The translations under genes were made by a program, and so were the position numbers. From the IMG/VR virus record IMGVR_UViG_2548876950_000004, positions 1 to 13,411 of that record: DNA of 13,411 nt; one strand, given 5' to 3'. Source of the stretch: a virus. Taxonomy: Duplodnaviria > Heunggongvirae > Uroviricota > Caudoviricetes. Below the pieces are notes generated by a model that made no database searches, was not told where the DNA came from, and saw only the letters and a list, made by a program, of their open reading frames with translations. Position 1 is the first letter of the stretch, and the number at the start of each line of letters is the position of its first letter. Shown piece after piece: positions 55-13,411 of this stretch.

Positions 55-157
55 AAACGCCCATGATTTTACAGGCTTTTGATACGTTGCTGAGTTCTTC
101 AGCCAGATTGAGCAAACCGGCTTTGTGTTTGATAACGGGATTGGTAGTATGAAGCAT
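55..157 (-). pseudogene. N-terminal fragment of an HTH-type protein, truncated at the IS junction
   Basis: ATG at 155-157 (reverse strand) preceded by GAGGT. Translation MLHTTNPVIKHKAGLLNLAEELSNVSKACKIMGV then runs straight into the IS-end sequence. The LAEELS-VSKACKIMGV stretch looks like the first helices of an HTH motif. Confidence 0.35.
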
Positions 158-280
158 GAGAGTTACCTCGTGTTTTGTATAAGGATTCGACACCCATATC
201 AAAACCGGTAACTCTCAACCTTTCAAGGCTCAGTGTCAGATCAAGTCGCGACTAATACACTCAATTCCATCATAAACTTC

Positions 281-409
281 TCAGTTGTTAGCTTTTGCCG
301 AACTGGAAAGCGCCTGTTTAAACTCACTGAAGCTGAGAGCTTCTTCGCCTTCGGCAAGGCCTTCGAAGTATTCTTCGTAAGCCTTTTTCATGATTGTGTC
401 GAAATCCAT
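281..409 (-). CDS. Small hypothetical protein, 42 aa (possibly YdaG-like)
   Basis: ATG at 407-409 (reverse strand) with AGGTGA 5 nt upstream; translation MDFDTIMKKAYEEYFEGLAEGEEALSFSEFKQALSSSAKANN, stop at 281-283. Below the 60-aa ORF-track cutoff. Sits upstream of the repressor like the small genes of Rac-type prophages. Confidence 0.4.
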   Translation of the reverse strand: MDFDTIMKKAYEEYFEGLAEGEEALSFSEFKQALSSSAKANN

Positions 410-419
410 ATCACTCACC

Positions 420-566
420 TTAGTTTCTTTCCAACCAGCGACGTGCGCCAGCTTCGGTTTTAAACGATTTGCTTTTGGTATACGTCATGGCGGTGAATGT
501 GCCGTCCTGATTGGGAAACACGCCACATACCAGAGATTCGTTGTTGCCAAGATCGATAGTATCCAT
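420..566 (-). CDS. Small hypothetical protein, 48 aa (possibly YdaF-like)
   Basis: Internal start MDTIDLGNNESLVCGVFPNQDGTF... of the 420..629 ORF, with GAGGT 4-5 nt upstream. The longer 69-aa form has no obvious ribosome-binding site. Confidence 0.4.
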   Translation of the reverse strand: MDTIDLGNNESLVCGVFPNQDGTFTAMTYTKSKSFKTEAGARRWLERN

Positions 567-816
567 GTTGACCTCATTTCCCCTTAACGCCGGGTGGCGG
601 AACGTTTTATCTACTGCGCTTTGTATCAATCAACAACTGCCGTCATGTTCGTATGCCTCAGGCTGGCTACTTAGCCCTGTTCAGTGGCTGGATAACTCGA
701 GGTATTGTCCAGCCGTTCTCTGGTGGGGCGTTGTTTGGATATGCTTATTAAACACAATGCGTTTTCTTATGTAAACACGAAATGTGTTTTGTGGTGAGTG
801 TCATATGATGATGGTA

Positions 817-841
817 CAAAAAAGCCCGCTGATAGCGGGCT
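817..841 (-). terminator. Intrinsic terminator downstream of the repressor gene
   Basis: Hairpin AGCCCGCT-GAT-AGCGGGCT (823-841) flanked by an A-run on the plus strand (817-822), which is a U-run after the hairpin on the minus strand. Confidence 0.6.
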
Positions 842-871
842 GATTGGCATATTACTGTGATAGCAAGATCA

Positions 872-1291
872 TTACTCCGGTGGGGGATTATCTTTAAGCC
901 TGCCTCTCAAATATTTTTCTACATACTCATCGATTTCTTTTAGCCGGACTTCAAATAGCTCAATCATTCGTTGTTGTTCTGAGCCAGGTAGCTGGTTAAA
1001 CAACTCAAGAAGTTTTCGTTGGGATTCATTTAACCACAATTCAGAAGATTCCTGTTCTCCAAATAGGAGCTCAGGAGGAGATATGCCAAGTGCCTTTCCC
1101 AATACGACAGCGTCATGCACTCCAACATTTCTGCTGCCCGCCTCATAGTTACCTATACGCGATTGCGTCCATCCGCAGATTTCAGCAAGTTTTCCTTGAG
1201 ATAAACCAAGCTTCTGCCTGCGCTCTTTAAGACGCATTGCAATTTTGTCATTGAGCCTACTAGCGGCAATTTTTTCGTTTTCTTTTTCCAT
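872..1291 (-). CDS. CI-like prophage repressor, XRE-family HTH, 139 aa, no S24 peptidase domain
   Basis: HTH segment LGLSQGKLAEICGWTQSRIGNYEAG; divergently oriented to a Cro-like gene across a 96-bp operator region; C-terminal part is charged/coiled-coil like with no Ser-Lys autocleavage domain. Confidence 0.8.
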   Translation of the reverse strand: MEKENEKIAASRLNDKIAMRLKERRQKLGLSQGKLAEICGWTQSRIGNYEAGSRNVGVHDAVVLGKALGISPPELLFGEQESSELWLNESQRKLLELFNQLPGSEQQRMIELFEVRLKEIDEYVEKYLRGRLKDNPPPE

Positions 1292-1387
1292 TGCATCCTT
1301 GTATCACGAATCGTGATTTACATAAAACACAAAACAGCTTGACCATATAACACAAGGTGTGTTTAAAATTGTCATCGGAGGTTTTCA
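1292..1387. promoter_or_regulatory. Immunity-switch operator/promoter region between divergent repressor and cro-like genes
   Basis: Contains palindrome ATCACGA-A-TCGTGAT (1303-1317), imperfect palindrome AACACA-AGG-TGTGTT (1349-1363) and a TTGACC -35-like hexamer (1336-1341). Confidence 0.6.
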
Positions 1388-1630
1388 ATGAACAAAATTT
1401 CAACATATCGAAAACAGCTTGGGCTGTCTCAAAGACAACTTGCTGTTCAGTTAGGGTGGATACAAAGCCGACTGGCAAATTACGAAGCAAATTTTCGTAC
1501 CCCTGGACTAGAGGAGTGCAGAAAAATTGTTTCTACCCTTAATCGGCTTGGCGCTCATTGTGGACTTGACGATGTATTCCCCCCAGACGGTAAGCATAGC
1601 GAAAACAGCATAGGAGCGGTTGATTCATGA
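1388..1630 (+). CDS. Cro-like HTH regulator, 80 aa (YdaS-like)
   Basis: GGAGG 6 nt upstream of the ATG. HTH LGLSQRQLAVQLGWIQSRLANYEA shares the GW-QSR-NYEA recognition-helix motif with the repressor. Stop overlaps the next start (ATGA at 1627-1630). Confidence 0.75.
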   Translation: MNKISTYRKQLGLSQRQLAVQLGWIQSRLANYEANFRTPGLEECRKIVSTLNRLGAHCGLDDVFPPDGKHSENSIGAVDS

Positions 1631-2049
1631 AAATCAGGCATGAGCACATCGAATCAGTGTTGTTAGCCCTGGCAGCCGAAAAAGGGCAGGCGTGGGTCGC
1701 TAACGCAATTACTGAAGAATATCTGCGCCAGGGGGGCGGCGAATTGCCCCTTGTACCAGGCAAGGACTGGAACAATCAGCAGAATATCTATCACCGTTGG
1801 TTGAAAGGTGAAACGAAAGCGCAAAGGGAAAAAATTCAGAAACTGATCCCTGCGGTTCTGGCAATTCTTCCGCGCGAGCTGCGTCACCGACTCTGCATCT
1901 TCGATACCCTGGAACGCCGTGCATTACTGGCGGCGCAGGAAGCGTTGAGTACGGCAATTGATGCGCATGATGATGCAGTCCAGGCCGTTTACCGGAAAGC
2001 ACATTTCAGCGGTGGTGGGTCGCCCGGCGATTCTGTCGTAGTGCATTGA
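1627..2049 (+). CDS. YdaT/CII-like prophage regulatory protein, 140 aa
   Basis: Translationally coupled to the cro-like gene; N-terminus MKIRHEHIE and the position after cro match my recollection of the Rac ydaS-ydaT arrangement. Identity is from recalled family features only. Confidence 0.5.
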   Translation: MKIRHEHIESVLLALAAEKGQAWVANAITEEYLRQGGGELPLVPGKDWNNQQNIYHRWLKGETKAQREKIQKLIPAVLAILPRELRHRLCIFDTLERRALLAAQEALSTAIDAHDDAVQAVYRKAHFSGGGSPGDSVVVH

Positions 2050-2126
2050 TTGAAATTAATCGTGCCGGATTGTTTTGTTCGGTATCAGTTAAATGTAACG
2101 CTGCGAGCGTTACAAGGTGAAAACAA

Positions 2127-2909
2127 ATGGCTTCAAACTGGATAAAGCTCGAGGTTATTACGCCGGATAAGCCGGAAATATTCAGGCTTGCTGAGATTCT
2201 GAATATTGATCCAGATGCCGCATTAGGGAAGGTTATTCGCTTCTGGGCATGGGCGGATCAACAAATGATAGACGGTAATGCAGATTGTAACGCTCGCGGC
2301 GTTACAAAAAGTGCAATAGATCGCATCACTTTTATGGCTGGTTTTGCTGATGCGTTAATTCAGGTTGGATGGCTGATCGAAAATGACGGTGGGCTTTCTC
2401 TACCTAACTTTGAACGTCATAACGGGAAAAGCTCTAAAAAACGGGCGGTTACAAACGAGCGAGTAACAAAAATACGCGAACTGCAACGAAAAGGTAACGC
2501 TGCCAGCGTTACACAAACGGATCAAAAAGCGTTACCAGAGGAAGAGGAAGATATAAATACTGATCTCCCCCTAAATCCCCCTCGCCAAAAACGAGCGTCT
2601 AAAAAATTCGAGCCGGAGGCTATCGAGCTGCCTGACTGGTTGCCGGAAACACTCTGGCATGAGTGGTTTCAGTTCAGGCAGGCATTGCGAAAACCGATTC
2701 GAACGGAGCAGGGCGCTAACGGGGCGATACGGGAACTGGAAAAATTCCGTCAGCAGGGTTTTACACCTGAGCAGGTGATTCGACACAGCATCGCCAATGA
2801 ATACCAGGGCCTGTTCGCGCCGAAAGGTGTTCGGCCTGAGACGTTGCTCCGACAGGTTAACACCGTCTCGTTGCCGGACAGTGCGATCCCGCCAGGCTTC
2901 AGGGGGTAA
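2127..2909 (+). CDS. Replication initiation/primosomal protein, DnaT-like C-terminus (YdaU-like), 260 aa
   Basis: AGGTGA ribosome-binding site; sits directly upstream of the DnaC-like gene, as in the dnaT-dnaC and lambda O-P arrangements; C-terminal W/F-rich segment DWLPETLWHEWFQFRQALRKP; gene body carries repeated palindromes. Confidence 0.55.
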   Translation: MASNWIKLEVITPDKPEIFRLAEILNIDPDAALGKVIRFWAWADQQMIDGNADCNARGVTKSAIDRITFMAGFADALIQVGWLIENDGGLSLPNFERHNGKSSKKRAVTNERVTKIRELQRKGNAASVTQTDQKALPEEEEDINTDLPLNPPRQKRASKKFEPEAIELPDWLPETLWHEWFQFRQALRKPIRTEQGANGAIRELEKFRQQGFTPEQVIRHSIANEYQGLFAPKGVRPETLLRQVNTVSLPDSAIPPGFRG

Positions 2910-2915
2910 CGGACC

Positions 2916-3662
2916 ATGAAAAATATTGCGACAGGCGGTGTTCTTGAACGTATCCGTAAGCTGGCTCCGCAGCATGTAACCGCGCCGTACCGGACAGTGG
3001 ACGAGTGGCGAGAGTGGCAGCTTGCAGAAGGGCGAAAACGTAGCGAGGAGATCAACCGCCTGAATCGTCAGTTGCGGGTGGAAAAAATTCTGAATCGCTC
3101 AGGCATCCAGCCGTTGCATCGTAAATGCTCGTTTGCAAATTACCAGGTGCAGAACGACGGCCAGCGATACGCGTTAAGCCAGGCGAAATCCATCGCCGAT
3201 GAACTGATGACCGGGGGTACAAATTTTGCGTTCAGCGGAAAACCTGGTACCGGGAAGAACCACTTAGCGGCAGCTATCGGAAATCGCCTGCTGAAAGATG
3301 GCCAGACAGTGATTGTGGTTACTGTGGCTGATGTTATGAGTGCCCTGCATGCCAGCTATGACGACGGACAGTCAGGCGAAAAATTTTTGCGGGAACTGTG
3401 CGAAGTGGATCTGCTGGTTCTTGATGAGATTGGCATTCAGCGCGAGACGAAAAACGAGCAGGTGGTACTGCACCAGATTATTGATCGACGGACAGCGTCG
3501 ATGCGTAGCGTGGGAATGCTGACAAATCTGAACTATGAGGCCATGAAAACATTGCTCGGTGAGCGGATTATGGATCGCATGACCATGAACGGCGGACGCT
3601 GGGTGAATTTTAACTGGGAGAGCTGGCGTCCGAATGTCGTCCAGCCAGGAATTGCGAAGTAA
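2916..3662 (+). CDS. DnaC-like helicase loader, AAA+ ATPase (IstB/DnaC family), 248 aa
   Basis: Walker [16 protein letters not shown] and Walker [10 protein letters not shown]; size and placement after the initiator gene. Confidence 0.85.
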
Positions 3663-3684
3663 TTTTTACCGGGAGAAAAATTTA

Positions 3685-4446
3685 ATGGAGACTGTTTTTG
3701 ACGCACTGAAAGCAATGGGAAAAGCCACATCCATAGAACTTGCTGCGCGACTTGATATCAGTCGTGAAGAGGTACTGAACGAGCTGTGGGAACTGAAAAA
3801 AGCTGGTTTTGTTGATAAAACCGCGTACACCTGGCGCGTGGCTGAAAACAACGTTCAGCAGGAACAGTCAGCGCAGGCAGAACTGCCGGAAGAAACCACC
3901 ACAGCAACAGTAGCGAAAATCTCAGAGTGCGATTTAACCGCAACGATTGAACAACGCGGACCACAAACGGCTGATGAGCTGGCTACATTGTTTGATACCA
4001 CATCACGCAAAGTGTCTTCAACGCTGGCAATGGCAATCAGCAAAGGTCGTCTGATTCGCGTAAATCAGGGCGGTAAATTTCGTTACTGCATACCGGGCGA
4101 TAATTTACCAGCAGAGCCGAAAGCAGCATCGGTAGCGGAAACTGATGGTAAAGCCTTTCCTCAGCCTGCATGTGTTGCGTTACCAGTACAGGAAGCTGCA
4201 ACACAGGAAGATATTAAAACAGAAACGATGGCGGACATTGTGCAGTCGCTGCCATCGTTTACTGCAACGCGATCTGATGATTTGATTTTGCCATCGCTGC
4301 ATTTGGCAAACCGCGAACTGCGTCGGGCGAAAAATCATGTCCAGAAGTGGGAGCGTGTCTGCGCCGCGCTGCGTGAGTTGAACAAGCACAGGGATATTGT
4401 ACGACAGATTACTGATTCTTCCCGCCATGTTGCATCGGAAAAGTGA
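3685..4446 (+). CDS. Hypothetical phage protein with two winged-helix-like segments, about 253 aa
   Basis: Start chosen at ATG 3685 (GGGAGA upstream) to avoid overlap with the DnaC-like gene. Segments [30 protein letters not shown] and [35 protein letters not shown] resemble winged-helix DNA-binding folds. Confidence 0.55.
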
Positions 4447-4461
4447 TTGCCGGAGGCGCTT

Positions 4462-4854
4462 ATGGCAAAAGTATTTACACAAGAAGAGCGGGAAGAAGTG
4501 AAGGCGCGCATTGTGGAATTCGTGCGCCTGAGCGGACGAGAAACTTTTCGACAACTGGCAGATAAAACGGGTGTCAGTAAGACCGCTATTCGTCGTTTAT
4601 CTGGTGCGCTTGCGGCCAGTGGTGATGTCTGGCTCTCTGGTTGCGGGGTATTTCCATCAGAGCAGGCGTATCGCGTATGGCGTAAGACACCGGAGAAGGC
4701 TGCTGACCCGACACTGATTCGAAAGTTACCTGACGGAGAAATACGTCGTTACAACAGACGGCAGAACATAATTTGTCGTGAGTGCCGCCAGAGCGAAGTT
4801 ATGCAGCGTGTGCTGGCGTTCTATCGGGGAAACTTTCAGGAGGTGATGTTGTGA
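4462..4854 (+). CDS. Hypothetical HTH-containing protein, about 130 aa
   Basis: GGAGG 5 nt upstream of ATG 4462; HTH-like FRQLADKTGVSKTAIRRLSG; stop overlaps the next gene's start. Confidence 0.5.
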   Translation: MAKVFTQEEREEVKARIVEFVRLSGRETFRQLADKTGVSKTAIRRLSGALAASGDVWLSGCGVFPSEQAYRVWRKTPEKAADPTLIRKLPDGEIRRYNRRQNIICRECRQSEVMQRVLAFYRGNFQEVML

Positions 4855-5324
4855 GTGAGTCGGCTACCATTCTCGACATGTGCTGTGGCAGTCGCATGTT
4901 CTGGTTTGATAAGAATGACGAACGGGCGATATTTAGCGATATCAGAAAAGAAGAGCACACATTGTGTGATGGACGACGCCTGATTATCAGTCCTGACCTG
5001 ATAGCAGATTTTCGAGCATTACCATTTGCAGACGCATCGTTTCCGGTTGTTGTATTCGACCCTCCGCATCTTGAGCGTGTTGGTGATAACGCCTGGATGG
5101 GAAAGAAATATGGACGGCTGAATAAAGATACCTGGCGAGATGATTTGCGGCAGGGATTTAAAGAAGCCTTTCGTGTGTTGTGCCCACGCGGCGTTCTGAT
5201 TTTTAAATGGAATGAAACGCAAATACCTGTTCGCCAGATATTGGTACTGACCGACAGAAAACCTGTTATCGGTCAACGAACAGGAAAAAACGATAAAACC
5301 CACTGGATTATTTTTATGAAATAG
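4851..5324 (+). CDS. Putative small SAM-dependent DNA methyltransferase (N6-adenine type, DPPH motif), about 157 aa
   Basis: GTG start at 4851 with AGGAGG 6 nt upstream. Motif I-like ILDMCCGSRMF followed by motif IV-like VVFDPPHL, the order seen in gamma-type amino-methyltransferases. Confidence 0.45.
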   Translation: MSESATILDMCCGSRMFWFDKNDERAIFSDIRKEEHTLCDGRRLIISPDLIADFRALPFADASFPVVVFDPPHLERVGDNAWMGKKYGRLNKDTWRDDLRQGFKEAFRVLCPRGVLIFKWNETQIPVRQILVLTDRKPVIGQRTGKNDKTHWIIFMK

Positions 5325-5572
5325 GCATCCAGTGAGTAGGTTCGTAAGGTTACAGATGCGTATATCTGAATAATTAAATTCAGTTCTGTAAATAAAATTT
5401 AATCCTTAACCGGAGGGATTCCTGCACCCTCAGAACATCAGGAGACCGCCCGAAAGGGCGGTAATGAAAAATGGCTGAATGAACCAAATGGCTACAAAAC
5501 ACGATTACCGGAATTGAAACGGTAGTAGACGATAAATCGTTTGTATGTGATGAAATAGTATTCAAAATCGAT

Positions 5573-5938
5573 GTGGTTAAAAACGTACTTACCGCATTTA
5601 AAGTCGCGCTGGTATCGCTGGAAGCCGAACCGGTGACATGGCGATATCGCTACGTGAGAAAAGGCGTTACGAACTTTCAGGAGAAGCCGTGGGTTGGTGA
5701 CTGGAAATATGTACCGACAAAAGAGGATTGCAACGACAGGCCGAACTATGAAATTCAGGCGTTATTCACGGCCCAGCCTGTGCCACTGACACCCGAAGGA
5801 TTGATTAAAGCGGTGCGCTTCTATGAACAGGTTAAGAGTGAAAATCCGCCAGTCGAAACCGGAGCATGGAAAGACGCTGTTGACTGGGTGCTCAAAGAGG
5901 CTTGTCAGGCTGTAAACATTGGCATCAAAGGAGAGTGA
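5573..5938 (+). CDS. Hypothetical protein, 121 aa, start uncertain
   Basis: Long ORF with no internal Met; GTG start at 5573 lacks a clear ribosome-binding site. Leads a co-oriented, tightly packed cluster. Confidence 0.45.
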   Translation: MVKNVLTAFKVALVSLEAEPVTWRYRYVRKGVTNFQEKPWVGDWKYVPTKEDCNDRPNYEIQALFTAQPVPLTPEGLIKAVRFYEQVKSENPPVETGAWKDAVDWVLKEACQAVNIGIKGE

Positions 5939-5939
5939 G

Positions 5940-6131
5940 ATGAACGGACAAATCTCAATTGTTCGACCGGGAGCATGTGACGATTGCGAGATACGAATGA
6001 TTATTCGTCTGGCGATGGGGAAAACAATAACTGCTCTCATTACTCCAGAAAATCTCGCATTAGCATTAACAGGAAAGTCAGACCTGCCAGTAGAGCTAAA
6101 GCTGCGAAATGTTGAGATTAAGGTGAAATAG
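5940..6131 (+). CDS. Hypothetical protein, 63 aa
   Basis: ATG at 5940 with AAGGAGAG 5 nt upstream, two bases after the upstream stop; ends 2 bp before the next gene. Confidence 0.5.
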   Translation: MNGQISIVRPGACDDCEIRMIIRLAMGKTITALITPENLALALTGKSDLPVELKLRNVEIKVK

Positions 6132-6133
6132 CT

Positions 6134-7555
6134 ATGACCACTATTACCAAAGAGCGACTGCTGACAATCAAGCAGTGGCGCGAAACATACGGACCTGGTA
6201 GCAACGTTGTACTGCCAGCAGAAGAAGCGGAAGAACTGGCACGGATTGCACTGGCATCATTGGAAGCAGATCCAGTTAAACGAGTTAACTCAGATCAGAT
6301 GCACCGAGTCTGCTTAGAAGCTAATCGCTATTTAGATAAATATGACGCGATGGCGAAAGAGGTAAATAAGTTGCTTGGACGCATCGCCCCGCCAGCGCCA
6401 GTATTTAACGGCGAATACGGTGACGCATATCAGGGCGCTCGTGAAGACCTGTCCATCTGGAAACGGCGAGCGCTTGAAGCTGATGAGCACGTTCGGCGAC
6501 TGGAGCAAATCAATGACCACATGGTGAAAGAGGCGCAGGGAGAATCACGCATGGGCGAGCCTGTAATACGTGAGCCAGCACCGGTAGTGCCTGAAGAAGC
6601 AACTCCGGAAAACGTAGAAATGCTCTCTGGCTATGTTTCAACGTACAAATTAACCGATAGCGAGCGCGATATTGCTGCCGAAATATGGAACGCCTGCCGC
6701 GCCGCCATGCTTCAGTCAGGAAACTTTCGGGAAAACAAGAATTCGTCAACCAATAATTTTCGGGAAATCGAGGAAACGTCAACCAACTATCCGGCAATTC
6801 CTAGTGAGGTGTTGTCCGCAATCCTGAAGGTTGCCAGGATTCGTGCCGATTTCGATGATTTTGACGGTGACAGGCGAGGTATCGGTGATTGTCTGGATGA
6901 GGCTGAGCAAGAGCTTATCGTTACCATTAACAAATATGCCAGTCAGTTGGCAGCAGAACCGATAGCGACTAATGACGTTCGAGAGCAGCAGACAGCCGTT
7001 CCGCCAGTTCCGGAAATACAGGCTGATGTCGCGCAAGCAATTGAAAATCTCAAGCAGAAGCTAGTGGAATGTAATCGCTATAACTACTGCGCAGATGCAG
7101 TTAAAGGCGTAGAGGATGCCTGCCGTGCTGTTAGCTATAGCCAAGCCGACAATCAACCAGCATCTGGCAACCAGGCTGCCGAATCCAATCGCGGTAATGA
7201 GTGGACCGGCAATCCTGATATTGATAACGCCATCATCATGCTCGACCGCATAGATACGCTGGAAAATTGCGATGATGACCGTATTGAGGCTGTTAAGGCT
7301 GTTTTGCGTAGACTGGCTGGCAACTATCCGGTAACTCCGGATGGTTGGATAAGCTGTAGTGAGCGAATGCCGAATACCAAAACAGCCGTTCTTGTTGCCG
7401 TGGAGTTTGACAGGAAAGGTGACTGGCGAATGAAATGGGCTACTTACATCCCGGGGCATCCTGACGCTAATGATGGGTGGATAATTCCTGGTGCGTCGTG
7501 GAAACCGTCACACTGGATGCCGCTACCAGAACCGCCGCAGGAGGTGCGCCAATGA
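6134..7555 (+). CDS. Large hypothetical phage protein with DUF551-like C-terminus, 473 aa
   Basis: AAGGTGA ribosome-binding site; acidic, low-complexity central region; C-terminal WISCSERMP...SHWMPLPEPP matches the recalled DUF551 signature. Confidence 0.6.
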   Translation: MTTITKERLLTIKQWRETYGPGSNVVLPAEEAEELARIALASLEADPVKRVNSDQMHRVCLEANRYLDKYDAMAKEVNKLLGRIAPPAPVFNGEYGDAYQGAREDLSIWKRRALEADEHVRRLEQINDHMVKEAQGESRMGEPVIREPAPVVPEEATPENVEMLSGYVSTYKLTDSERDIAAEIWNACRAAMLQSGNFRENKNSSTNNFREIEETSTNYPAIPSEVLSAILKVARIRADFDDFDGDRRGIGDCLDEAEQELIVTINKYASQLAAEPIATNDVREQQTAVPPVPEIQADVAQAIENLKQKLVECNRYNYCADAVKGVEDACRAVSYSQADNQPASGNQAAESNRGNEWTGNPDIDNAIIMLDRIDTLENCDDDRIEAVKAVLRRLAGNYPVTPDGWISCSERMPNTKTAVLVAVEFDRKGDWRMKWATYIPGHPDANDGWIIPGASWKPSHWMPLPEPPQEVRQ

Positions 7556-7635
7556 TCTGGCCTGAAGCCTTTGCAATTACAGGCGTTGCTATAGCTATTG
7601 ATTTTTTAGTATATGTTATTTGTCGGTGGGGGTAA
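7552..7635 (+). CDS. Tiny hydrophobic peptide, 27 aa
   Basis: ATG overlaps the upstream stop (ATGA) with GGAGGTG upstream; translation MIWPEAFAITGVAIAIDFLVYVICRWG is a single predicted transmembrane helix. Below ORF-track cutoff. Confidence 0.4.
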   Translation: MIWPEAFAITGVAIAIDFLVYVICRWG

Positions 7636-7670
7636 AAACGTTCGCCGGGATTCACACCAAAGGAGGGAAT

Positions 7671-7775
7671 ATGTCGGATGATATTTCACTGGCAATGGAA
7701 GGTGCGCTGGCTGTTATTGCTGTTGTGGGCGTTTACTGCCTGGTTGTGTTTTTGATGGATCGACTAGGGAACTGA
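7671..7775 (+). CDS. Tiny hydrophobic peptide, 34 aa
   Basis: AAAGGAGGGAAT-ATG; translation MSDDISLAMEGALAVIAVVGVYCLVVFLMDRLGN with a central hydrophobic helix. Below ORF-track cutoff. Confidence 0.45.
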   Translation: MSDDISLAMEGALAVIAVVGVYCLVVFLMDRLGN

Positions 7776-7783
7776 ATTCATTA

Positions 7784-7805
7784 CGATATGGGAATTCCCA
7801 TATCG
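7784..7805. repeat. Perfect 22-bp palindrome CGATATGGGAATTCCCATATCG
   Basis: Exact self-complement with a central GAATTC, 9 bp after the 34-aa peptide stop and upstream of the hok locus; no T-run follows, so not a classical terminator. Confidence 0.7.
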
Positions 7806-7909
7806 GGTAAAAACGGTTTGCGGTAAAGCGAGAGTTAAGTAGAATTGCTGCGGGTGCTTGAGGCTATCTGCCTCGGGCATGCCACCGTAAGGCAGACAGA
7901 GAAAAGCCC

Positions 7910-7975
7910 CAGTTAACATTACGCGTCCGGCAAGACGCTTAACATTAATCTGAGGCCATATCTATGCTCTACACA
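7910..7975 (-). ncRNA. Expected position of the Sok-like antisense RNA of the hok locus (approximate, not delimited)
   Basis: Placed by analogy with hok/sok architecture, where the antisense RNA overlaps the leader and upstream start region. Promoter and 3' end could not be pinned from sequence. Confidence 0.25.
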
Positions 7976-8020
7976 CGTAGGTTAGCCTCTTACGTGCCGA
8001 AAGGCAAGGAGAAGCAGGCT

Positions 8021-8176
8021 ATGAAGCAGCAAAAGGCGATGTTAATCGCCCTGATCGTCATCTGTTTAACCGTCATAGTGACGGCACTGGTAACGAGGAA
8101 AGACCTCTGCGAGGTACGAATCCGAACCGGTCAGACGGAGGTCGCTGTCTTCGTAGACTACGAATCTGAGAAGTAA
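8021..8176 (+). CDS. hok: Hok/Gef-family type I toxin, 51 aa; in-frame upstream start at 7964 gives a 70-aa Mok-like form
   Basis: MKQQKAMLIALIVICLTVIVTALVTRKDLCEVRIRTGQTEVAVFVDYESEK has the hallmark Hok/Gef transmembrane segment and TRKDLCEV...GQTEVA motif; AGGAG upstream of ATG 8021. Confidence 0.8.
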   Translation: MKQQKAMLIALIVICLTVIVTALVTRKDLCEVRIRTGQTEVAVFVDYESEK

Positions 8177-8244
8177 GAGACCAGGCGGGGGAGTAATCTC
8201 CCGCCACCTCTGATGTGTCAGGCATCCTCAACGCACCCGCACTA

Positions 8245-8267
8245 AACCCGCTTCGGCGGGTTTTTTG
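8245..8267 (+). terminator. Intrinsic terminator at the 3' end of the hok transcript
   Basis: Hairpin AACCCGC-TTCG-GCGGGTT followed by TTTTTTGTT; a second GC-rich hairpin lies just upstream (about 8192-8210). Confidence 0.7.
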
Positions 8268-8451
8268 TTGCGTGCTGAATGCGCAGGGTGAAAAATAACC
8301 ATATATTTGATTATATACACAACAAAAAATAAAAGTCATTGTACCTGCACATTAAATAATCAAATATACAGCGTGAAATAAATATTTTTCAGATTAATAT
8401 TTTTGTCTCTATGTGGATATAACCGTTTGTACTTATAAACTCGGAGGCATC

Positions 8452-8664
8452 GTGGAAAAAATAAAGAAACTATTTAGTTGCAAATACGCAGTCATACGTC
8501 GTGATGACCTGTCAGTTATAGTCGAAATGGATTACTTCCCTGAAACCCCAAAATCAATGATGTATCGTAATGGTCGAAAGGCAATTTTTTTACCGATGAG
8601 GGTAAGTGACATTATGGGAAATGATAAACTGCTGGATGAATTGCGAGTCAGAGCATCCTGTTAG
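8452..8664 (+). CDS. Hypothetical protein, about 70 aa
   Basis: GTG at 8452 with GGAGG 4 nt upstream, preferred over the ATG at 8413 which lacks a ribosome-binding site; AT-rich promoter-like region upstream. Confidence 0.45.
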   Translation: MEKIKKLFSCKYAVIRRDDLSVIVEMDYFPETPKSMMYRNGRKAIFLPMRVSDIMGNDKLLDELRVRASC

Positions 8665-8735
8665 TATTGGCATTAATTCTGGTATACTACATAACGGGCT
8701 GAACACCCATTCTACTGCGCCAGCGGAGAACTACG

Positions 8736-9335
8736 ATGGCGCATATACAACTGGTCAAACAAACCTCTTCCGGATTACTTCTCCCGGCGACACCGGAGAG
8801 TTGCGATTTTTTGCATCAAATCAAAATAGGCGAGTGGATACACGCAGACTTTAAGCGTGTGCGTAACTACGCATTCCACAAGCGTTTTTTCAAACTCCTG
8901 CAACTGGGATTCGATTACTGGACTCCGGTCGGTGGGGCGATCACGCCTCGCGAACGAGAACTGCTGTCTGGTTTCGTTGATTACCTGTGCGAATCAGTTG
9001 GTCGGGAACACACGCCAGCCCTGAGTGATGCCGCAGAGCAATATCTGAATACAGTTGCGACACGCAGAACCCGGGATACGGCATTGTTAAAGTCGTTTGA
9101 GGCTTTTCGCGAGTGGGTAACCATTCAGGCTGGATTTTACACCGAACATTTTTATCCGGACGGTAGCCATGGGCGTCGGGCGAAATCCATCGCTTTTGCG
9201 AATATGGACGAAACCGAGTTTCAGCAGGTTTATAAATCTGTTCTGAATGTGCTGTGGAACTGGATTCTGTTCCGTAAATTTTCCTCTCCGGAACAAGTCG
9301 AAAATGTGGCCGCGCAGCTGCTGGAGTTTGCGTAA
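8736..9335 (+). CDS. Conserved lambdoid nin-region protein, 199 aa
   Basis: GGAGA 6 nt upstream of the ATG; stop overlaps the next start (TAATG); family assignment (DUF1367-like) is from memory only. Confidence 0.55.
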   Translation: MAHIQLVKQTSSGLLLPATPESCDFLHQIKIGEWIHADFKRVRNYAFHKRFFKLLQLGFDYWTPVGGAITPRERELLSGFVDYLCESVGREHTPALSDAAEQYLNTVATRRTRDTALLKSFEAFREWVTIQAGFYTEHFYPDGSHGRRAKSIAFANMDETEFQQVYKSVLNVLWNWILFRKFSSPEQVENVAAQLLEFA

Positions 9336-9625
9336 TGGTGGATTTACGTAAAGCGGCGCGGGGGCAGATGTGCACCGTCAGAATTCCTGGCTACTGCAAT
9401 CACGATCCGGAAACGTCTGTGCTGGCGCATTACCGACTGGCGGGAACGTGCGGAACAGCGATAAAGCCACACGATATGCAGGCAGCGATTGCCTGTAGCT
9501 CGTGCCACGATTTAATCGACGGGCGGGTAAAAACCGGCGATTACACCAAAGAAGAATTACGCCTGATGCATGCAGAAGGTGTTTTTCGCACACAAGAAAT
9601 CTGGAGAAAGGAGGGATATTTATGA
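9335..9625 (+). CDS. YbcO-like (DUF1364) cysteine-rich protein, putative nuclease, 96 aa
   Basis: Size and several cysteines (CTVRIPGYC...CGT...ACSSCHD) fit the YbcO family that sits before Q in lambdoid prophages; translationally coupled on both sides. Confidence 0.55.
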   Translation: MVDLRKAARGQMCTVRIPGYCNHDPETSVLAHYRLAGTCGTAIKPHDMQAAIACSSCHDLIDGRVKTGDYTKEELRLMHAEGVFRTQEIWRKEGYL

Positions 9626-10176
9626 TTTACCCAACGAATACAGGAAAAAGCGGAGAACACCTTCGTCTCACCACGCTGGAAAGTGTCTGGATTCAGGGAA
9701 AACTACGTATGTGGGGGCGCTGGTCGTATATTGGCGGCGGTAAGACGGGAAATATGTTTAACCAGTTGCTGACCTCTAAAAAGCTAACAAAAACGGCAAT
9801 TAATGAGGCGCTCCGGAGGATGAAAAAAGCAGGTCTGGACAAACCTGAACTTGAGGCTTTTTTGCGGGATATGATCAACGGCAAGCAAAAAAGCTGGCTG
9901 GTGCATTGTACTGATGCAGAGGCGTTATGCATTGATCGGGTGATTAGTGAAGTGCTGGCAGAACACCCAGGATTGATTTGTATCCTCCGGCAAAGATATG
10001 AAGGGCGGGGGATGAGTAAGCGCAAAATGGCTGAATTGCTAAATGATGCACACCCTGAGTGGTGTTTTCGGACGTGCTGCAGTCGGGTAGATGTATGGCT
10101 AAATCTTGCTGAATATATGCTCTATCTGCCGATGCGTGATGCATTCTCTTCCGGGTATTTAAAAACTGTCTGTTGA
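9622..10176 (+). CDS. Putative late-gene antiterminator Q, 184 aa
   Basis: Called mainly from position: last gene of the nin-like block, immediately followed by a strong promoter overlapping its stop and a short terminated leader. Strong AAAGGAGGG ribosome-binding site. Sequence family not confirmed. Confidence 0.5.
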   Translation: MIYPTNTGKSGEHLRLTTLESVWIQGKLRMWGRWSYIGGGKTGNMFNQLLTSKKLTKTAINEALRRMKKAGLDKPELEAFLRDMINGKQKSWLVHCTDAEALCIDRVISEVLAEHPGLICILRQRYEGRGMSKRKMAELLNDAHPEWCFRTCCSRVDVWLNLAEYMLYLPMRDAFSSGYLKTVC

Positions 10177-10202
10177 CTCAATCTGTTATCCGGGGCTATA
10201 TT
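10173..10202 (+). promoter_or_regulatory. PR'-like late promoter (TTGACT-N18-TATATT)
   Basis: -35 TTGACT at 10173-10178 overlaps the stop of the upstream gene; -10 TATATT at 10197-10202. Confidence 0.55.
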
Positions 10203-10264
10203 CCTCACGCGCCAGCAAAATCTGGCGTCGGGATTAGGAACCCCGGATAGAGACCGCGACAGAC

Positions 10265-10287
10265 ACACGCCGCGAGCGTGTTTTTTA
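10265..10287 (+). terminator. tR'-like intrinsic terminator ending a short (about 80 nt) leader RNA
   Basis: Hairpin ACACGC-CGCGA-GCGTGT followed by TTTTTTATT, about 60-80 nt downstream of the PR'-like promoter. Confidence 0.65.
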
Positions 10288-10449
10288 TTGTCGTATGCAC
10301 GCGCACATCTGAATTATGGTGGGGCGTATGGGGGAGCTGAAAAGCTCGCCGGTTGGTTTCCCGGTAGTTCCTAACCCTGTACGTCTCACCACCCGATGAT
10401 TAGGAACCTGACGGTGGTGATGGTTTAGAAACCACCAGAGGGCGTCATT

Positions 10450-11031
10450 ATGACAACTCAAATTTCTGTTGAAACTCTCTCCCCGATCACCCATAACCAG
10501 ATTCCTGTTATTACCACCGAACTTTTGGCGCAGTTGTACGGTGCTGGAGTTAAGAACATTCAAAATAACTACGCCAGAAATGCTGAGCGCTTTATTGAAG
10601 GAAAGCATTTTTTCAAAGTGGCTGGCGATGCCCTGAAAAATTTGCGGGTAGCTTTAAACTACTCACAAAATTTGCAACCATCTTTAAGAGGGTTACAAAT
10701 TTCCCCGAAAGCCCGCTCCCTCATCCTCTGGACAGAACGCGGAGCAGCCCGTCATGCCAAAATGCTGGAAACCGATCAGGCGTGGGATGTGTTCGAAAAG
10801 CTGGAAGACTGCTATTTCAGACAAAAGGATCCGTCAGCGCCAGTTTCATGCCAGAAAAGTTACGACACGCGAGTTCTCTGTTATCAGAGAGGCGGTGTCA
10901 CTGTTTCCACAATTCAGTTACGGGATGATGATATTGTTATTTCCCTTGAGTCATGGCTGGAACTGGCGAGAGCCAATGGTTGGTTTGTTGTTCGCAGAGA
11001 TAAACTGGTGGAAAGGTTGATGCAGCTTTAA
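10450..11031 (+). CDS. ORF6N/KilA-N-like domain protein (antirepressor-type regulator), 193 aa
   Basis: N-terminal IPVITTELLAQLYGAGVKNIQNNYARNAERFIEGKHFFKV matches the recalled ORF6N consensus (LAELYG...RN..RF...F). Confidence 0.55.
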   Translation: MTTQISVETLSPITHNQIPVITTELLAQLYGAGVKNIQNNYARNAERFIEGKHFFKVAGDALKNLRVALNYSQNLQPSLRGLQISPKARSLILWTERGAARHAKMLETDQAWDVFEKLEDCYFRQKDPSAPVSCQKSYDTRVLCYQRGGVTVSTIQLRDDDIVISLESWLELARANGWFVVRRDKLVERLMQL

Positions 11032-11128
11032 AAAAGTTCTTGCATTTTTGCACATAAACTGCTTCAATTCCTGTATGCTTCGCAAAGCTGTATCGCGAGG
11101 CGAAACGCAAGTTTTTTTCGCACAAGGA

Positions 11129-11151
11129 AGCCACCGGAAGGTGGTTTTTTT
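11129..11151 (+). terminator. Intrinsic terminator after the ORF6N gene
   Basis: Hairpin CCACC-GGAA-GGTGG followed by TTTTTTT. Confidence 0.65.
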
Positions 11152-11274
11152 GTGTCCGTAATATACAGCAGCGCAATAAATTCGCTGGTGGTTATTAATA
11201 CCGTTCTTTCAGCTTGCTGGCTTTTTCGACAAGAGTTATTGGTATGTCACGTTAACCGGAAAGGGTAAAAAGAC

Positions 11275-11472
11275 ATGCTGAAACAGCAGGATATGACAGA
11301 AACCGCCAGAGTTGTGTTTGATGAATTAAGCGTTACCGAACCGGCGACAGTCGGGGAGATTGCGCAGAATACTTACCTTTCACGCGAACGCTGCCAGTTA
11401 ATACTGACCCAGCTGGTTATGGCGGGTCTGGCAGACTATCAGTGCGGTTGTTACAGACGCATTCAGTCCTGA
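11275..11472 (+). CDS. Small putative DNA-binding protein, 65 aa
   Basis: ORF with a weak AAGGG ribosome-binding site; the VGEIAQNTYLSRERCQLILTQLVMAGL segment looks like a winged-helix/HTH. Confidence 0.4.
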   Translation: MLKQQDMTETARVVFDELSVTEPATVGEIAQNTYLSRERCQLILTQLVMAGLADYQCGCYRRIQS

Positions 11473-11505
11473 AGGCTTTTTATTTGTGGTAAATGGGCGG
11501 CTGGT

Positions 11506-11513
11506 GGGGGGGG
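11506..11513. repeat. Homopolymeric G8 tract upstream of the AraC-family gene
   Basis: Eight consecutive G (GGTGGGGGGGGCGG) about 95 bp upstream of the ATG at 11608. Confidence 0.8.
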
Positions 11514-11607
11514 CGGCACCTGTCAGTCCTTTGCTTATGTGTTGATGATAATTTACCTTTTGGGGCTATAATTGAGCTAACCAATTGCTAATGAAAGTAA
11601 AATTATA

Positions 11608-12321
11608 ATGGCTGTTGTCTGTTCAGTTATCATGGTTTGCTCCCCAATTAATATTTTTCTTGAAAAGGATACGTTGTCACTTAAGCCAGGCTCAGTCGTT
11701 CTGGCCACCAAATGCATCAGGGAGCTTTTCCTTATGCATTATGGCAAAGTTAAAATTGTCGATATAAGCGAATCCGTCGTAAGTCAATATCTGGAAAGTC
11801 AGCATAAGCTGACGAGGACTCGTCTGACTGACATTCCGCTTTACCTGTTGCTGGAACCCAACAATCCTGCGTTGGCTGCGGCTTTAATTACCAGCCAGGG
11901 ATTTTCCGGAGAGGTCACGGATATGTTTCTTATGATGGCCTGCCTGTCTCTGTTTGAAACAGATGAACGGATGTCATTGTTTTTAAGTGGATGTTTATCC
12001 AGCATAAGTGCCAAAGTCAGGGCGATAATTCAGACAGATATATCAGCAAGCTGGACGCTTGGTGCGATTGCTCTACAGTTGCATATGAGTGAGAGTTTGT
12101 TAAAGACAAAACTGAAAAATGAAGGGGGCATGTTCAGTCGCTTGTTGCTGGAAGAGCGGATGCGTGTTGCTGTAAATATGTTATGTTCCCGGCATGGATA
12201 TGGACAGGCTGTAGCAGAAAAATGCGGTTATTCAAGCAGGTCCTACTTTATTTCTGTATTTCACCGCTATTATGGCTTCCCGCCAGACAGATATGTATCC
12301 AGGCAAGGGCTTGATTATTGA
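11608..12321 (+). CDS. AraC/XylS-family transcriptional regulator, 237 aa
   Basis: C-terminal double-HTH typical of the family (SWTLGAIALQLHMSESLLKTKLK...YGQAVAEKCGYSSRSYFISVFHRYYGFPP); located in the cargo slot between Q and the lysis genes. Confidence 0.75.
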   Translation: MAVVCSVIMVCSPINIFLEKDTLSLKPGSVVLATKCIRELFLMHYGKVKIVDISESVVSQYLESQHKLTRTRLTDIPLYLLLEPNNPALAAALITSQGFSGEVTDMFLMMACLSLFETDERMSLFLSGCLSSISAKVRAIIQTDISASWTLGAIALQLHMSESLLKTKLKNEGGMFSRLLLEERMRVAVNMLCSRHGYGQAVAEKCGYSSRSYFISVFHRYYGFPPDRYVSRQGLDY

Positions 12322-12349
12322 TTTTCATCTGATTATTATTTTTTGGCTC

Positions 12350-12425
12350 GGCCCTTTAGCTCAGTGGTGAGAGCGAGCGACTCATAATCGCCAGGTCGCT
12401 GGTTCAAATCCAGCAAGGGCCACCA
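12350..12425 (+). tRNA. tRNA with CAU anticodon (Ile2/Met type, ileX-like)
   Basis: Cloverleaf by hand: acceptor GGCCCTT/AAGGGCC, anticodon loop CTCATAA, T-loop TTCAAAT, 3' CCA. Close to the host ileX sequence as I recall it. Confidence 0.7.
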
Positions 12426-12426
12426 A

Positions 12427-12503
12427 CCGCCACTAGCTCATCAGGAAAGAGCGTCAACCCTTTAAGTTGAGTGTGCGAGGTTCGAGTCCCCGGTGGCGGT
12501 CCA
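12427..12503 (+). tRNA. Atypical tRNA-like gene, anticodon UUU (Lys-like), possibly a pseudo-tRNA
   Basis: Acceptor CCGCCAC/GTGGCGG with CCA end, D-arm and TTCGAGT T-loop present, but C at position 33, a C1:G72 start and one T-stem mismatch. Confidence 0.45.
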
Positions 12504-12505
12504 GT

Positions 12506-12581
<76 letters not shown>

Positions 12582-12584
12582 TAT

Positions 12585-12659
<75 letters not shown>

Positions 12660-12866
12660 GTTAGAGTCTTTCAGTCTGCGATGATGGGAAATCCCGGAGT
12701 GACTGAAAGACGTTTAGGTTATGAATGATCGCTTTTTTTTGCAAAATTGCTGTGCAGAAATACTAACCTTCGGGCAGGCGATCATTCATAAGCACTCTGC
12801 TTTTATTCCGATTAACTGTGGGTGGTTTGTTGGATAGAGTGCTTTCCTGACTGTAGATCCAATTTC

Positions 12867-12891
12867 GCCCGCTTTTGCGGGCTTTTCTTTT
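12867..12891 (+). terminator. Intrinsic terminator downstream of the tRNA cluster
   Basis: Hairpin GCCCGC-TTTT-GCGGGC followed by TTTTCTTTT. Confidence 0.7.
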
Positions 12892-12951
12892 CAAATCCCT
12901 TTCATCTCTCAGTGTAAAACTACGCCATCCGTTATTTGCGGAGGTGAGGCT

Positions 12952-13167
12952 ATGAAATCCATGGACAAAATTTCAACGGGCATTGCCTACGGCACCTCCG
13001 CAGGCAGTGCTGGCTACTGGTTTTTACAGTGGCTTGATCAAGTCAGTCCGTCACAGTGGGCTGCGATTGGTGTACTGGGGAGTCTGATTCTGGGCTTCCT
13101 GACTTATCTGACAAATCTGTACTTCAAAATCAGAGAAGACAAGCGTAAGGCTGCACGGGGAGAGTAA
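12952..13167 (+). CDS. Phage 21-type class II holin (pinholin) with dual-start motif, 71 aa
   Basis: [27 protein letters not shown]...[13 protein letters not shown] closely matches S21 as I recall it, including the M-K-S-M dual start (12952 and 12961); GGAGGTGAGG ribosome-binding site. Confidence 0.85.
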
Positions 13168-13171
13168 TTCA

Positions 13172-13358
13172 ATGACTCAAAACTATGAAGTGATTGTGAA
13201 AGGGATCCGCAATTTTGAGAATAAAGTTACGGTAACTTTAGCGTTACGGGACAAAAAACGCTTTGACGGTGAAATTTTTGACCTGGACATCTCGCTGGAC
13301 CGTGTTGAAGGTGCCGCGCTGGAGTTTTATGAGGCAGCAGCCAGAAGGAGCATCAGAC
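13172..13358 (+). pseudogene. Lysis-region gene (possibly YdfR-like) truncated by the IS insertion
   Basis: ATG at 13172 with GGGGAGAG upstream; ORF MTQNYEVIVKGIRNFENKVTV... runs in frame into the IS-end sequence at 13359 with no stop before the window edge. Family name from memory only. Confidence 0.4.
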
Positions 13359-13411
13359 TGAACCGCCCCGGGTTTCCTGGAGAGTGTTTTATCTGTGAAC
13401 TCAGGCTGCCA
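13359..13411 (+). mobile_element. Terminal inverted repeat of an IS3-family insertion sequence (element body lies right of the window)
   Basis: TGAACCGCCCCGGGTTTCCTGGAGAG..., the exact reverse complement of window positions 2-54. Confidence 0.5.

Follow-up and report, generated by a model that had tools for sequence, protein, structure and literature searches.

Two candidate membrane-peptide genes and a palindrome shared with KilA-N genes at a mosaic joint in front of hok/sok in a lambdoid Escherichia coli prophage

The closest described counterparts of the locus considered here are the hokW/sokW cassette of phage 933W (PF01848, RF01794), the mosaic joints of lambdoid phages, the small single-pass membrane proteins of Escherichia coli and its prophages recognised by ribosome profiling, and the KilA-N proteins, which are abundant and poorly understood viral DNA-binding proteins. 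The locus lies in a 13,411-nt stretch of DNA (hereafter the window; positions 1 to 13,411 of IMG/VR record IMGVR_UViG_2548876950_000004, Caudoviricetes) whose source is a lambdoid (Rac/Stx-like) E. coli prophage. It consists of two short open reading frames (ORFs), pep1 (7552-7635, plus strand, 27 aa) and pep2 (7671-7775, plus strand, 34 aa), followed by the perfect 22-bp palindrome CGATATGGGAATTCCCATATCG (7784-7805) directly upstream of hok. The arrangement is probably a mosaic joint at which two real genes for small membrane peptides and a palindrome left over from a KilA-N gene have come to stand in front of an autonomous hok/sok cassette.

Set against these systems, the hok/sok cassette of the window (7818-8263) is a close homologue of hokW/sokW with the same promoter, leader, mok/hok genes, fbi element and terminator, and identity to 933W is 96% from 7808 onward; in 933W the pep1 homologue is joined straight to the hok promoter, with neither pep2 nor the palindrome between them. 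The locus resembles other mosaic joints of lambdoid phages in its breaks of homology at the palindrome edge and its short direct repeats, and departs from the usual ones in having as its boundary a perfect palindrome with a separate, conserved existence inside a protein-coding gene family. In size, single hydrophobic helix, strong Shine-Dalgarno sequence and missed annotation, pep1 and pep2 are like the small membrane proteins found by ribosome profiling. Unlike the named small membrane proteins of E. coli, they have no sequence relation to any of these, and the family to which pep1 belongs (the WPEAFA family) is phage-borne and translationally coupled. As a feature of the window, the stretch is mostly ordinary mosaic prophage content.

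The pep1, pep2, palindrome and hok elements form a mosaic joint and not a functional unit, because related phages show them in every partial combination and the hok mRNA does not include the palindrome; the functional linkage to hok raised by the initial annotation is not borne out. We scanned IMG/VR with a DNA pattern for pep1 that included the ATGA start/stop overlap and obtained at least 120 loci. Among the matches listed with sufficient flank, 69 pep1 loci carry pep2, palindrome and hok, 11 carry hok only, and 23 carry none of the three. Phage 933W has pep1 and hok alone, and locus L147 has pep1, a pep2-like gene and hok without the palindrome. In PPompW prophages a paa/adfO insertion precedes the palindrome and hok, and both peptides are missing; in loci L157 and L198 pep2 and palindrome are kept with hok replaced. 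Cassettes of the L053 type and that of L153 have hok with none of the three, so that hok stands without the palindrome in 933W, L147, L053 and L153. Of 5426 complete E. coli genomes, 671 carry the full pep1-pep2-palindrome unit, in most cases with an identity of at least 95%, and conservation of all three features extends over hundreds of prophages of this species.

The breakpoints of homology coincide with the parts of this unit. Homology to relatives begins exactly at 7769, at the end of pep2 (PPompW), or, for 933W and numerous further hok loci, at 7805/7808. The segment holding pep2 and the palindrome is flanked by two copies of an 11-bp direct repeat, GGGTAAAAACG, the first (7630-7640) containing the pep1 stop codon and the second (7805-7815) marking where 933W-type hok homology resumes. 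Phage 933W has a single copy, with its pep1 homologue fused to the sequence that follows the second copy in the window. With the repeat at both ends of the segment, 933W and the window therefore differ by exactly one repeat-bounded insertion or deletion.

A putative hok promoter on the plus strand (7818-7845; -35 TTGCGG at 7818-7823, 16-nt spacer, -10 TAGAAT at 7840-7845) lies 7 nt upstream of the start of the Rfam model and is conserved in all hok cassettes examined. The 5' part of the hok mRNA, the tac/ucb/mok leader, matches RF01794 at 7852-8026 (plus strand; 112.6 bits, E=1.8e-25), and the Sok antisense RNA is placed at 7902-7972 on the minus strand by homology to sokW of 933W. The mok (7964-8176) and hok (8021-8176) frames on the plus strand are annotated in RefSeq as Hok/Gef family protein and match Pfam HOK_GEF at E=1.1e-22. 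They are followed on the same strand (8226-8263) by the fbi element CCTCAACGCACCC (8226-8238), which is complementary to 7852-7863, and by an intrinsic terminator (8244-8263). From the leader start at 7852, the placement of the -10 and -35 elements and the fbi pairing, the hok transcript is therefore expected to start about 47 nt past the palindrome. The palindrome ends at 7805 and is centred near -57 relative to the hok start; it is outside both the hok mRNA and the sok gene.

The palindrome is the longest perfect one in the window, where it occurs once, and it arose in 0 of 200 shuffles (about 0.003 expected per 13.4 kb). It begins 8 nt past the pep2 stop codon and as RNA would form a 9-bp stem with an AAUU loop (-14.5 kcal/mol, z = -3.3). 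An intrinsic terminator was rejected: the hairpin runs into GGUAAAAACGG (plus strand) or UAAUGAAUUC (minus strand), neither of which is a T-run, and the terminator scan made no call, in agreement with the initial annotation, which had also given the exact 22-bp extent. Rfam searches at gathering and permissive thresholds found no family over the palindrome, either here or in KilA-N genes. A repeat of the repetitive extragenic palindrome or bacterial interspersed mosaic element (REP/BIME) kind was likewise rejected, there being one copy in the window and the E. coli genome copies following hok cassettes and KilA-N genes.

At least 120 IMG/VR contigs contain an exact copy of the 18-bp core of the palindrome. 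Among the matches listed, 73 core copies are next to hok, in three flank classes, and most of the others lie inside genes identified by Pfam as KilA-N (PF04383). We considered a mobile element as the cause of so many exact viral matches and rejected it, since most are KilA-N coding sequences. In these genes the core encodes (D/N)-M-G-I-P-I-(S/L), and the window palindrome is identical at 22 of 22 nt to the enterobacterial version encoding D-M-G-I-P-I-S. The intragenic element consists of 9-bp arms around a GGNATYCC centre, in canonical form CGATATGGG-AATT-CCCATATCG, to which the window copy conforms.

The flanks point to the source of the window copy. On the minus strand, 11 of the 18 nt to its left (7766-7783, overlapping the pep2 stop) agree with the codons next after the DMGIPIS motif in KilA-N genes, a score reached by 27 of 2000 shuffles, and this flank can be read as a decayed remnant of those codons. 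For the sister hok-linked class the corresponding match is 13-14 of 18, reached by 0-1 of 2000 shuffles, and same-orientation controls are non-significant. In the window there is no in-frame KilA-N ORF at the palindrome, minus-strand stops following directly (TCG TAA TGA), and tblastn found no KilA-N homology there beyond the motif, leaving a relic of only about 18 nt. The window thus shares with KilA-N genes of the DMGIPIS subfamily an identical 22 bp and a similar stretch of about 18 nt on the minus strand; unlike in those genes, the gene itself is gone and the palindrome is non-coding.

A syntenic phage, vB_EcoS-673R7, carries an intact gene in the same slot. Its left part comprises O, DnaC-like, DUF1627 and DUF977 genes, a hypothetical gene, a pep1 homologue and a bidirectional terminator, and its right part a KilA-N gene on the opposite strand (product URC10292.1) followed by hok, DUF1367, YbcO and Q. 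The same right-hand joint is common to all three hok-linked classes. The most economical history would make the window palindrome a stranded remnant of an opposite-strand KilA-N gene. That gene would once have stood divergent from hok and lost its 5' part, up to the palindrome edge, by deletion, and its 3' part would later have been overwritten, here by pep2. The palindrome would since have been carried along as the upstream edge of one variant of a hok cassette that does not need it.

Whatever the status of the orphan copy, the palindrome inside KilA-N genes clearly behaves as an element under selection. Three samples of genes were drawn by peptide pattern, which leaves codon choice free. In the first, 80 IMG/VR loci near the E. 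coli gene that collapse to 33 nucleotide haplotypes, the arms are invariant at synonymous sites (GAT 32/32, CCC 33/33, ATA 32/32, TCG 28/28). The two central codons vary (GGA/GGG 18:15, ATT/ATC 31:2) and neighbouring codons are freely synonymous, Ser57 using five codons and Pro85 either CCA or CCT. The second sample comprised 80 more distant loci, including giant-virus metagenome-assembled genomes (MAGs) of 22-35% GC, in which the perfect palindrome is retained with different arms: CAATATGGG..CCCATATTG (NMGIPIL), CAATATCGG..CCGATATTG (NIGIPIL), GGATATCGG..CCGATATCC (DIGIPIS), GGCGGTCGG..CCGACCGCC (AVGIPTA), GTCCATGGG..CCCATGGAC (SMGIPMD) and CGAAACGGG..CCCGTTTCG (ETGIPVS). The third base of the Pro codon tracks that of the codon two positions earlier, ATG going with CCC and ATC or GTC with CCG. 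Over 32 distinct KilA-N sequences 98.3% of cells are paired, double-sided changes affect 7 of 9 pairs, and the covariation score of 0.302, compared with 0.087 for shuffles, was attained by 0 of 500 of these; slid controls show 31-54% pairing.

The third sample, 42 loci from bacterial genomes of more than eight phyla with third-position GC contents (GC3) of 0.22 to 0.81, shows CCC in 42 of 42, ATA in 42 of 42 and GAT in 38 of 40 cases at the motif. Away from the motif, the same genes use CCC for 24% of Pro, ATA for 23% of Ile and GAT for 54% of Asp residues. Here the outermost pair covaries (C-G, A-T, T-A, G-C). The cyanophage PaV-LD keeps 8-bp arms even without the GIP motif (DIGKTIS), and distant KilA-N subfamilies (D3 orf11, HK544, Moraxella and Klebsiella phages) have neither motif nor palindrome. 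The codon and pairing patterns clearly argue that the palindrome is held by nucleotide-level selection inside one KilA-N subfamily that spans bacteria, phages and giant-virus MAGs, and that the element is functional in those genes whichever reading fits the orphan copy. Synonymous sites fixed from Methylobacterium (GC3 0.8) to Brachyspira (GC3 0.2), together with arm covariation, therefore point to a second, non-protein code in KilA-N genes. Our literature search found no paper describing the palindrome or nucleotide-level selection in KilA-N genes. The initial description of the palindrome as a hairpin or a dimer-binding site was a fair one, for an element class that selection appears to have kept palindromic.

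As an RNA hairpin, the element would act in regulation or processing of KilA-N mRNAs and in front of hok would protect or process the 3' end of the pep2/early-operon transcript. It would thereby insulate the hok mRNA, which requires a precise 5' end for fold-back control. The stability of the 9-bp stem, the double-sided changes within KilA-N genes with a loop centre that varies freely, and the position just past the pep2 stop all suit this proposal. In the third hok-linked class (L024) the palindrome (4764-4785) comes 17 nt after the stop codon of an ORF6N-like gene (4067-4747; 226 aa) and is 17 nt further from the hok start than in the window, and its place behind a stop codon fits the same proposal. 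Hok-linked copies also carry four single-sided stem changes (C1>T, C14>T, C16>T, C21>T), all of which give G.U on the transcribed plus strand, and two loop substitutions (A10>C, A10>G), both compatible with a plus-strand hairpin. The G.U bias over four events is suggestive (p about 0.06), and the evidence is mixed overall, wobble in KilA-N genes being divided between 5-6 sense-strand and 2 antisense-strand events. For RNase III a stem of 9 bp is short, the element lacks a U-tract and has no match in Rfam, the partial Dhillonvirus copies described below would form a stem of only 6 bp, and hok cassettes such as that of 933W work without the palindrome. We regard the hairpin as a rather unlikely account of the window copy.

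Copies in a third setting, outside KilA-N genes, bear on whether it is DNA that is recognised. Many Dhillonvirus genomes carry the 24-mer GCGATATGGGAATTCCCATATCGG between genes, immediately behind the helicase-primase gene; phage records matching a 40-nt query that includes it number 90 in total. Phage rolling (L413) has the palindrome at about 1201-1224. In phage Teewinot (L412, 37661-37930) it lies in a tandem array of 5.1 units of 53 bp that keep TTGGGAATTCCCATATCG and not the full left arm, adjoining other short repeats, GCGGGACA and ATTGGTTGC. The Teewinot array looks like iterons, that is, protein-binding sites, which would argue for DNA-level recognition, and the Dhillonvirus array may be an origin or a regulatory array.

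These copies favour the view that the palindrome is a DNA site for a dimeric protein, the candidate being a KilA-N-family protein that binds the same sequence in its own gene, with the copy upstream of hok acting as an operator or as a roadblock on the hok promoter or on read-through. Conservation in KilA-N genes, in more than eight phyla, extends beyond pairing to a nearly invariant sequence, and a hairpin explains the Teewinot units poorly. A possible precedent is Roi of phage HK022, a nin-region DNA-binding protein related to P1 Ant1/KilA that reportedly binds a site inside its own gene, although its N-terminal domain and its site may be unrelated. For the copy before hok, however, hok-linked classes differ in distance to the hok start by the 17 nt given above, a shift that does not amount to full helical turns. 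Extra half-sites (CCCATATCG) of the kind expected of an operator array do not exceed chance anywhere in the window or in the one KilA-N/hok locus searched, including near the KilA-N promoter. The intact cognate KilA-N gene is present in 137 of the 5426 complete E. coli genomes against 671 with the full unit, lineages with wholly different arms (GGCGGTCGG, GTCCATGGG) would require co-evolved specificity, and none of the ten Teewinot proteins tested contains a KilA-N domain. A DNA site is on balance unlikely, and we place it below the hairpin.

The orphan arms are variable at 3 of 18 sites compared with 11 of 43 in neighbouring non-coding DNA, a non-significant difference. We accordingly rank a relic that travels with the hok cassette first for the window copy, a hairpin in read-through RNA second and an operator third, because the arms are not significantly less variable than their surroundings, the spacing shifts by 17 nt, extra half-sites are absent and the cognate KilA-N gene is rare. 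If the palindrome is active here, its likeliest form would be a stable hairpin just past the pep2 stop in rightward read-through RNA.

pep1 encodes MIWPEAFAITGVAIAIDFLVYVICRWG, with one 19-residue hydrophobic segment (Kyte-Doolittle mean 2.31); its ATG at 7552 overlaps the TGA of a 473-aa Ea22/DUF551 ORF (ATGA), and its Shine-Dalgarno sequence, AGGAGGT (7539-7545, plus strand), lies 6 nt before the ATG within the last codons (..PEPPQEVRQ*) of that ORF. The scan yielded 27 distinct peptides among the matches listed, nearly all exactly 27 aa long. They define the WPEAFA family, with an M-x-W-P-E-A-F-A N-terminus, one hydrophobic helix, a length of 23-27 aa and usually an ICRWG ending, a pattern that pep1 of the window fits. 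The same ATGA overlap occurs in the window, 933W, SJ46 and 673R7; the large scan itself demanded it.

Neighbours of the family members differ from locus to locus. Among the matches listed, the gene upstream is in many loci a DUF551 protein ending ...PEPPQEVRQ, whose codons supply the Shine-Dalgarno sequence, or has one of at least three unrelated C-termini, and what follows is the hok promoter at +45, pep2, a coupled gene (TAACGATG), terminators or a tRNA. The 27-codon homologue of 933W, MTWPEAFANVGTVMAVVLVVYSICRWR, is ATGA-coupled to another upstream gene and runs directly into the hok promoter, and that of the P1-like plasmid prophage SJ46, MSWPEAFAIVGVAMAIAAIFIFWG, is ATGA-coupled, far from hok and followed by a coupled gene. 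By tblastn, homologues are present in 92 deposited phage genomes, including 933W, VT2-Sakai, BP-4795 and Min27, mostly concealed under the annotation of neighbouring genes. Over 24 nucleotide haplotypes, at codons free of the search pattern, pS is 0.53 and pN 0.24 (pN/pS 0.45). On this conservation, pep1 appears to be a real gene, and its family is a widespread, largely unannotated group of phage-borne micro-genes found with or without hok. In Shigella phage 75/02 Stx (L005, about 1513-1600) the homologue is broken by TGG>TAG at codon 3 and a frame change, and pep1 is therefore dispensable in at least one deposited phage genome.

pep2 encodes MSDDISLAMEGALAVIAVVGVYCLVVFLMDRLGN, again with one 19-residue hydrophobic segment (Kyte-Doolittle mean 2.72), behind the Shine-Dalgarno sequence AAGGAGG (7660-7666, plus strand), 4 nt before its ATG; the coordinates, ribosome-binding sites and single helices first assigned to both peptides proved exact. 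That both were unannotated holds for pep1, which is present in a few GenBank records (ASL59204.1 etc.), absent from RefSeq and uncalled by the Prokaryotic Genome Annotation Pipeline (PGAP), and fails for pep2, which PGAP annotates as hypothetical protein WP_001278450.1. Moreover, pep2 forms the core of XECs145, a 'novel small gene' of E. coli O157:H7 Sakai (Hucker et al. 2017, PLoS One, PMC5597208). The ORF called there has 53 aa and starts at an ATG further upstream; it carries 20 extra residues at the N-terminus and then the whole of pep2, unchanged and in the same frame. XECs145 was reported as transcribed and translated, 'real' by classifier and predicted to lie in the inner membrane with one helix, and no function was assigned (PMC5597208). 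In lysogeny broth (LB) its transcriptome and translatome reads per kilobase per million (RPKM) were 79 and 346, with a ribosome coverage value (RCV) of 4.35 and coverage of 0.99 (PMC5597208). The corresponding figures were 121, 150, 1.14 and 0.84 in brain heart infusion (BHI) and 73.3, 1.1, 0.01 and 0.37 under cold and osmotic stress (PMC5597208). In contrast to the 53-aa call, the strong Shine-Dalgarno sequence, the RefSeq annotation and the conservation seen in the present analysis favour the 34-aa product.

Variation in pep2 is that of a coding sequence. pN/pS is 0.28 over 13 nucleotide haplotypes, variable sites fall at codon positions 1/2/3 in the ratio 7/1/11 of 34 (22 haplotypes), and the amino-acid variants are conservative (A8V, I16V, A17V, F27L, D30E, N34S). 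A set of 5.8 billion proteins held 30 close matches, those with a source name being E. coli, and a single-sequence search of 1.84 billion cluster representatives returned 7 relatives. Locus L147 has, between its pep1 homologue and hok and without the palindrome, a divergent homologue of the same 34-aa length, MWEVIVLVLKCALAIVAVMAIYCLVIVLMDHLSD (1762-1866, minus strand). Derivation of pep2 from KilA-N sequence was rejected, no similarity having been found. On this evidence, pep2 is a real, already published and apparently young gene, limited to E. coli prophages as far as sources are named. On the plus strand between 7500 and 7670 we found no sigma-70 promoter that would explain its expression in lysogens. 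The coding sequence of pep2 contains, at 7726-7742, a weak hairpin resembling a terminator, with a T-run (TGGGCGTTTACTGCCTG GTTGTGTTTT).

We propose that translation of pep1 would be coupled to that of the gene before it, by means of the ATGA overlap and the Shine-Dalgarno sequence in that gene's last codons, and that pep2 would be translated from its own Shine-Dalgarno sequence. Both would insert in the inner membrane as single-pass peptides, with the acidic N-terminus predicted to be most likely outside, and would probably be small accessory modulators, not killers. That one or both are instead chance frames in a conserved non-coding spacer draws on their very short length, on the fact that we found no proteomic evidence and on the failure of PGAP to call pep1. 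It is the least probable of the readings considered, hard to reconcile with a pep1 length and frame conserved over 24 haplotypes at the pS and pN given above, with the third-position excess and ribosome-profiling signal of pep2, with the pep2 homologue of identical length in L147 and with strong Shine-Dalgarno sequences at correct spacing. The initial proposal of real small peptide genes gains from the same purifying selection and conserved length, and the ORF containing pep2 is translated according to the published ribosome profiling; the outcome that the initial annotation named as refuting it, no translation and no conservation in related prophages, was not the one observed.

The initial annotation also suggested membrane toxins or holin-like proteins, and we asked whether the peptides could cooperate or be co-controlled with hok in such a role. 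They are small and single-helix, of Hok-like size and hydrophobicity, and hok follows pep2 in 79 of 83 sampled loci. Pfam, PHROGs and NCBIfam nevertheless gave no credible family for either peptide (hmmscan none at E<=1, against 1.1e-22 for mok/hok), HOK_GEF (PF01848) included. Nor is there an antisense RNA, a mok-like leader or a fold-back element around 7552-7775, the Rfam hok leader matching only 7852-8026. pep1 occurs without hok in P1-like and other phages, and the strong pep2 footprint signal in growing LB cultures is hard to square with a potent toxin. Finally, the peptides lie in a nin-like early region, between the replication genes and the Q-like gene, and a lysis cassette with its own class II holin (about 12952-13167) is found 5 kb downstream. 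A toxin or holin role is therefore very improbable, and this part of the proposal was set aside.

Several observations weigh against the account we prefer, that of real peptide genes and a KilA-N relic at a mosaic joint. The flank homology that marks the relic is modest in the window (11/18, p about 0.014) and strong only in the sister class, and the palindrome is still perfect in three hok-linked flank classes, so it could be functional and not a passive relic. The XECs145 signal does not by itself fix the pep2 start codon, and the O157 genome holds several copies of the region, so footprint reads may map to more than one. Translation of pep1 is predicted from conservation, the peptide being shorter than the 30-aa cut-off applied in the one ribosome-profiling study that our search located, and the membrane location and action of both peptides are predictions from sequence.

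The remainder of the window is consistent with its lambdoid origin. The segment 7450-8300 is 100% identical to prophages of strains Z1323CEC0019 and EPSSH018. From the left, the gene order runs from immunity genes through O-like and DnaC-like replication genes to DUF1627, DUF977, a methyltransferase and the 473-aa Ea22/DUF551 ORF (6134-7555, plus strand; C-terminal DUF551, E=1.3e-20). To the right of the peptide and palindrome stretch, which lies in a delayed-early region with rightward transcription, follow hok/sok, DUF1367, YbcO and a Q-like antiterminator, then isrK/C4 RNAs and an ORF6N protein, and finally four tRNAs and the holin. The span 6134-7555 reads here as a single 473-aa ORF, and RefSeq on strain Z1323CEC0019 (L002, 6850-8106), for which identity to the window was shown over 7450-8300 only, gives pseudogene fragments and a 62-aa DUF551 protein; an Ea22-like and DUF551 fusion may have been mishandled by the annotation pipeline. 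A palindrome with 9-bp arms (TGTAACGCT / AGCGTTACA) occurs twice, at 2094-2114 just before and at 2494-2512 inside the O-like replication gene (2127-2909), and these copies may be origin or initiator binding sites. Rfam places c4-a1b1, isrK and C4 antisense RNA at 10196-10396, directly upstream of a gene for an ORF6N-domain (antirepressor-like) protein (10450-11031), an arrangement resembling the P1/Gifsy-type antisense-controlled antirepressor module. Four clustered tRNA genes (12350-12656) precede the holin gene, an arrangement shared with Stx-type prophages.

For the window itself, the gains are an unannotated, widespread phage micro-gene family in pep1 and conservation support for a 'novel gene' from ribosome profiling in pep2; that hok/sok needs none of pep1, pep2 or the palindrome matters for the annotation of many O157 prophages. 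The lasting value may lie in the pep1 family and, above all, in the palindrome as a lead into KilA-N genes. A broader interpretation, which we put forward tentatively, is that the palindrome is a free-standing copy of an ancient and hitherto undescribed cis-acting element of one large KilA-N subfamily, reused as an iteron-like site in Dhillonvirus; in KilA-N genes, covariation of the arms would even drive correlated amino-acid changes (D..S, N..L, E-T..V-S, A-V..T-A), besides fixing rare codons. Were this true, and the element a site recognised by the KilA-N protein itself or by a universal nuclease, the orphan palindrome before hok would be a live regulatory or processing site, and in KilA-N genes the stretch coding for part of the DNA-binding domain would contain the genes' own target. 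An intragenic target site or hairpin of this kind would give an experimental handle on the action and control of KilA-N proteins.

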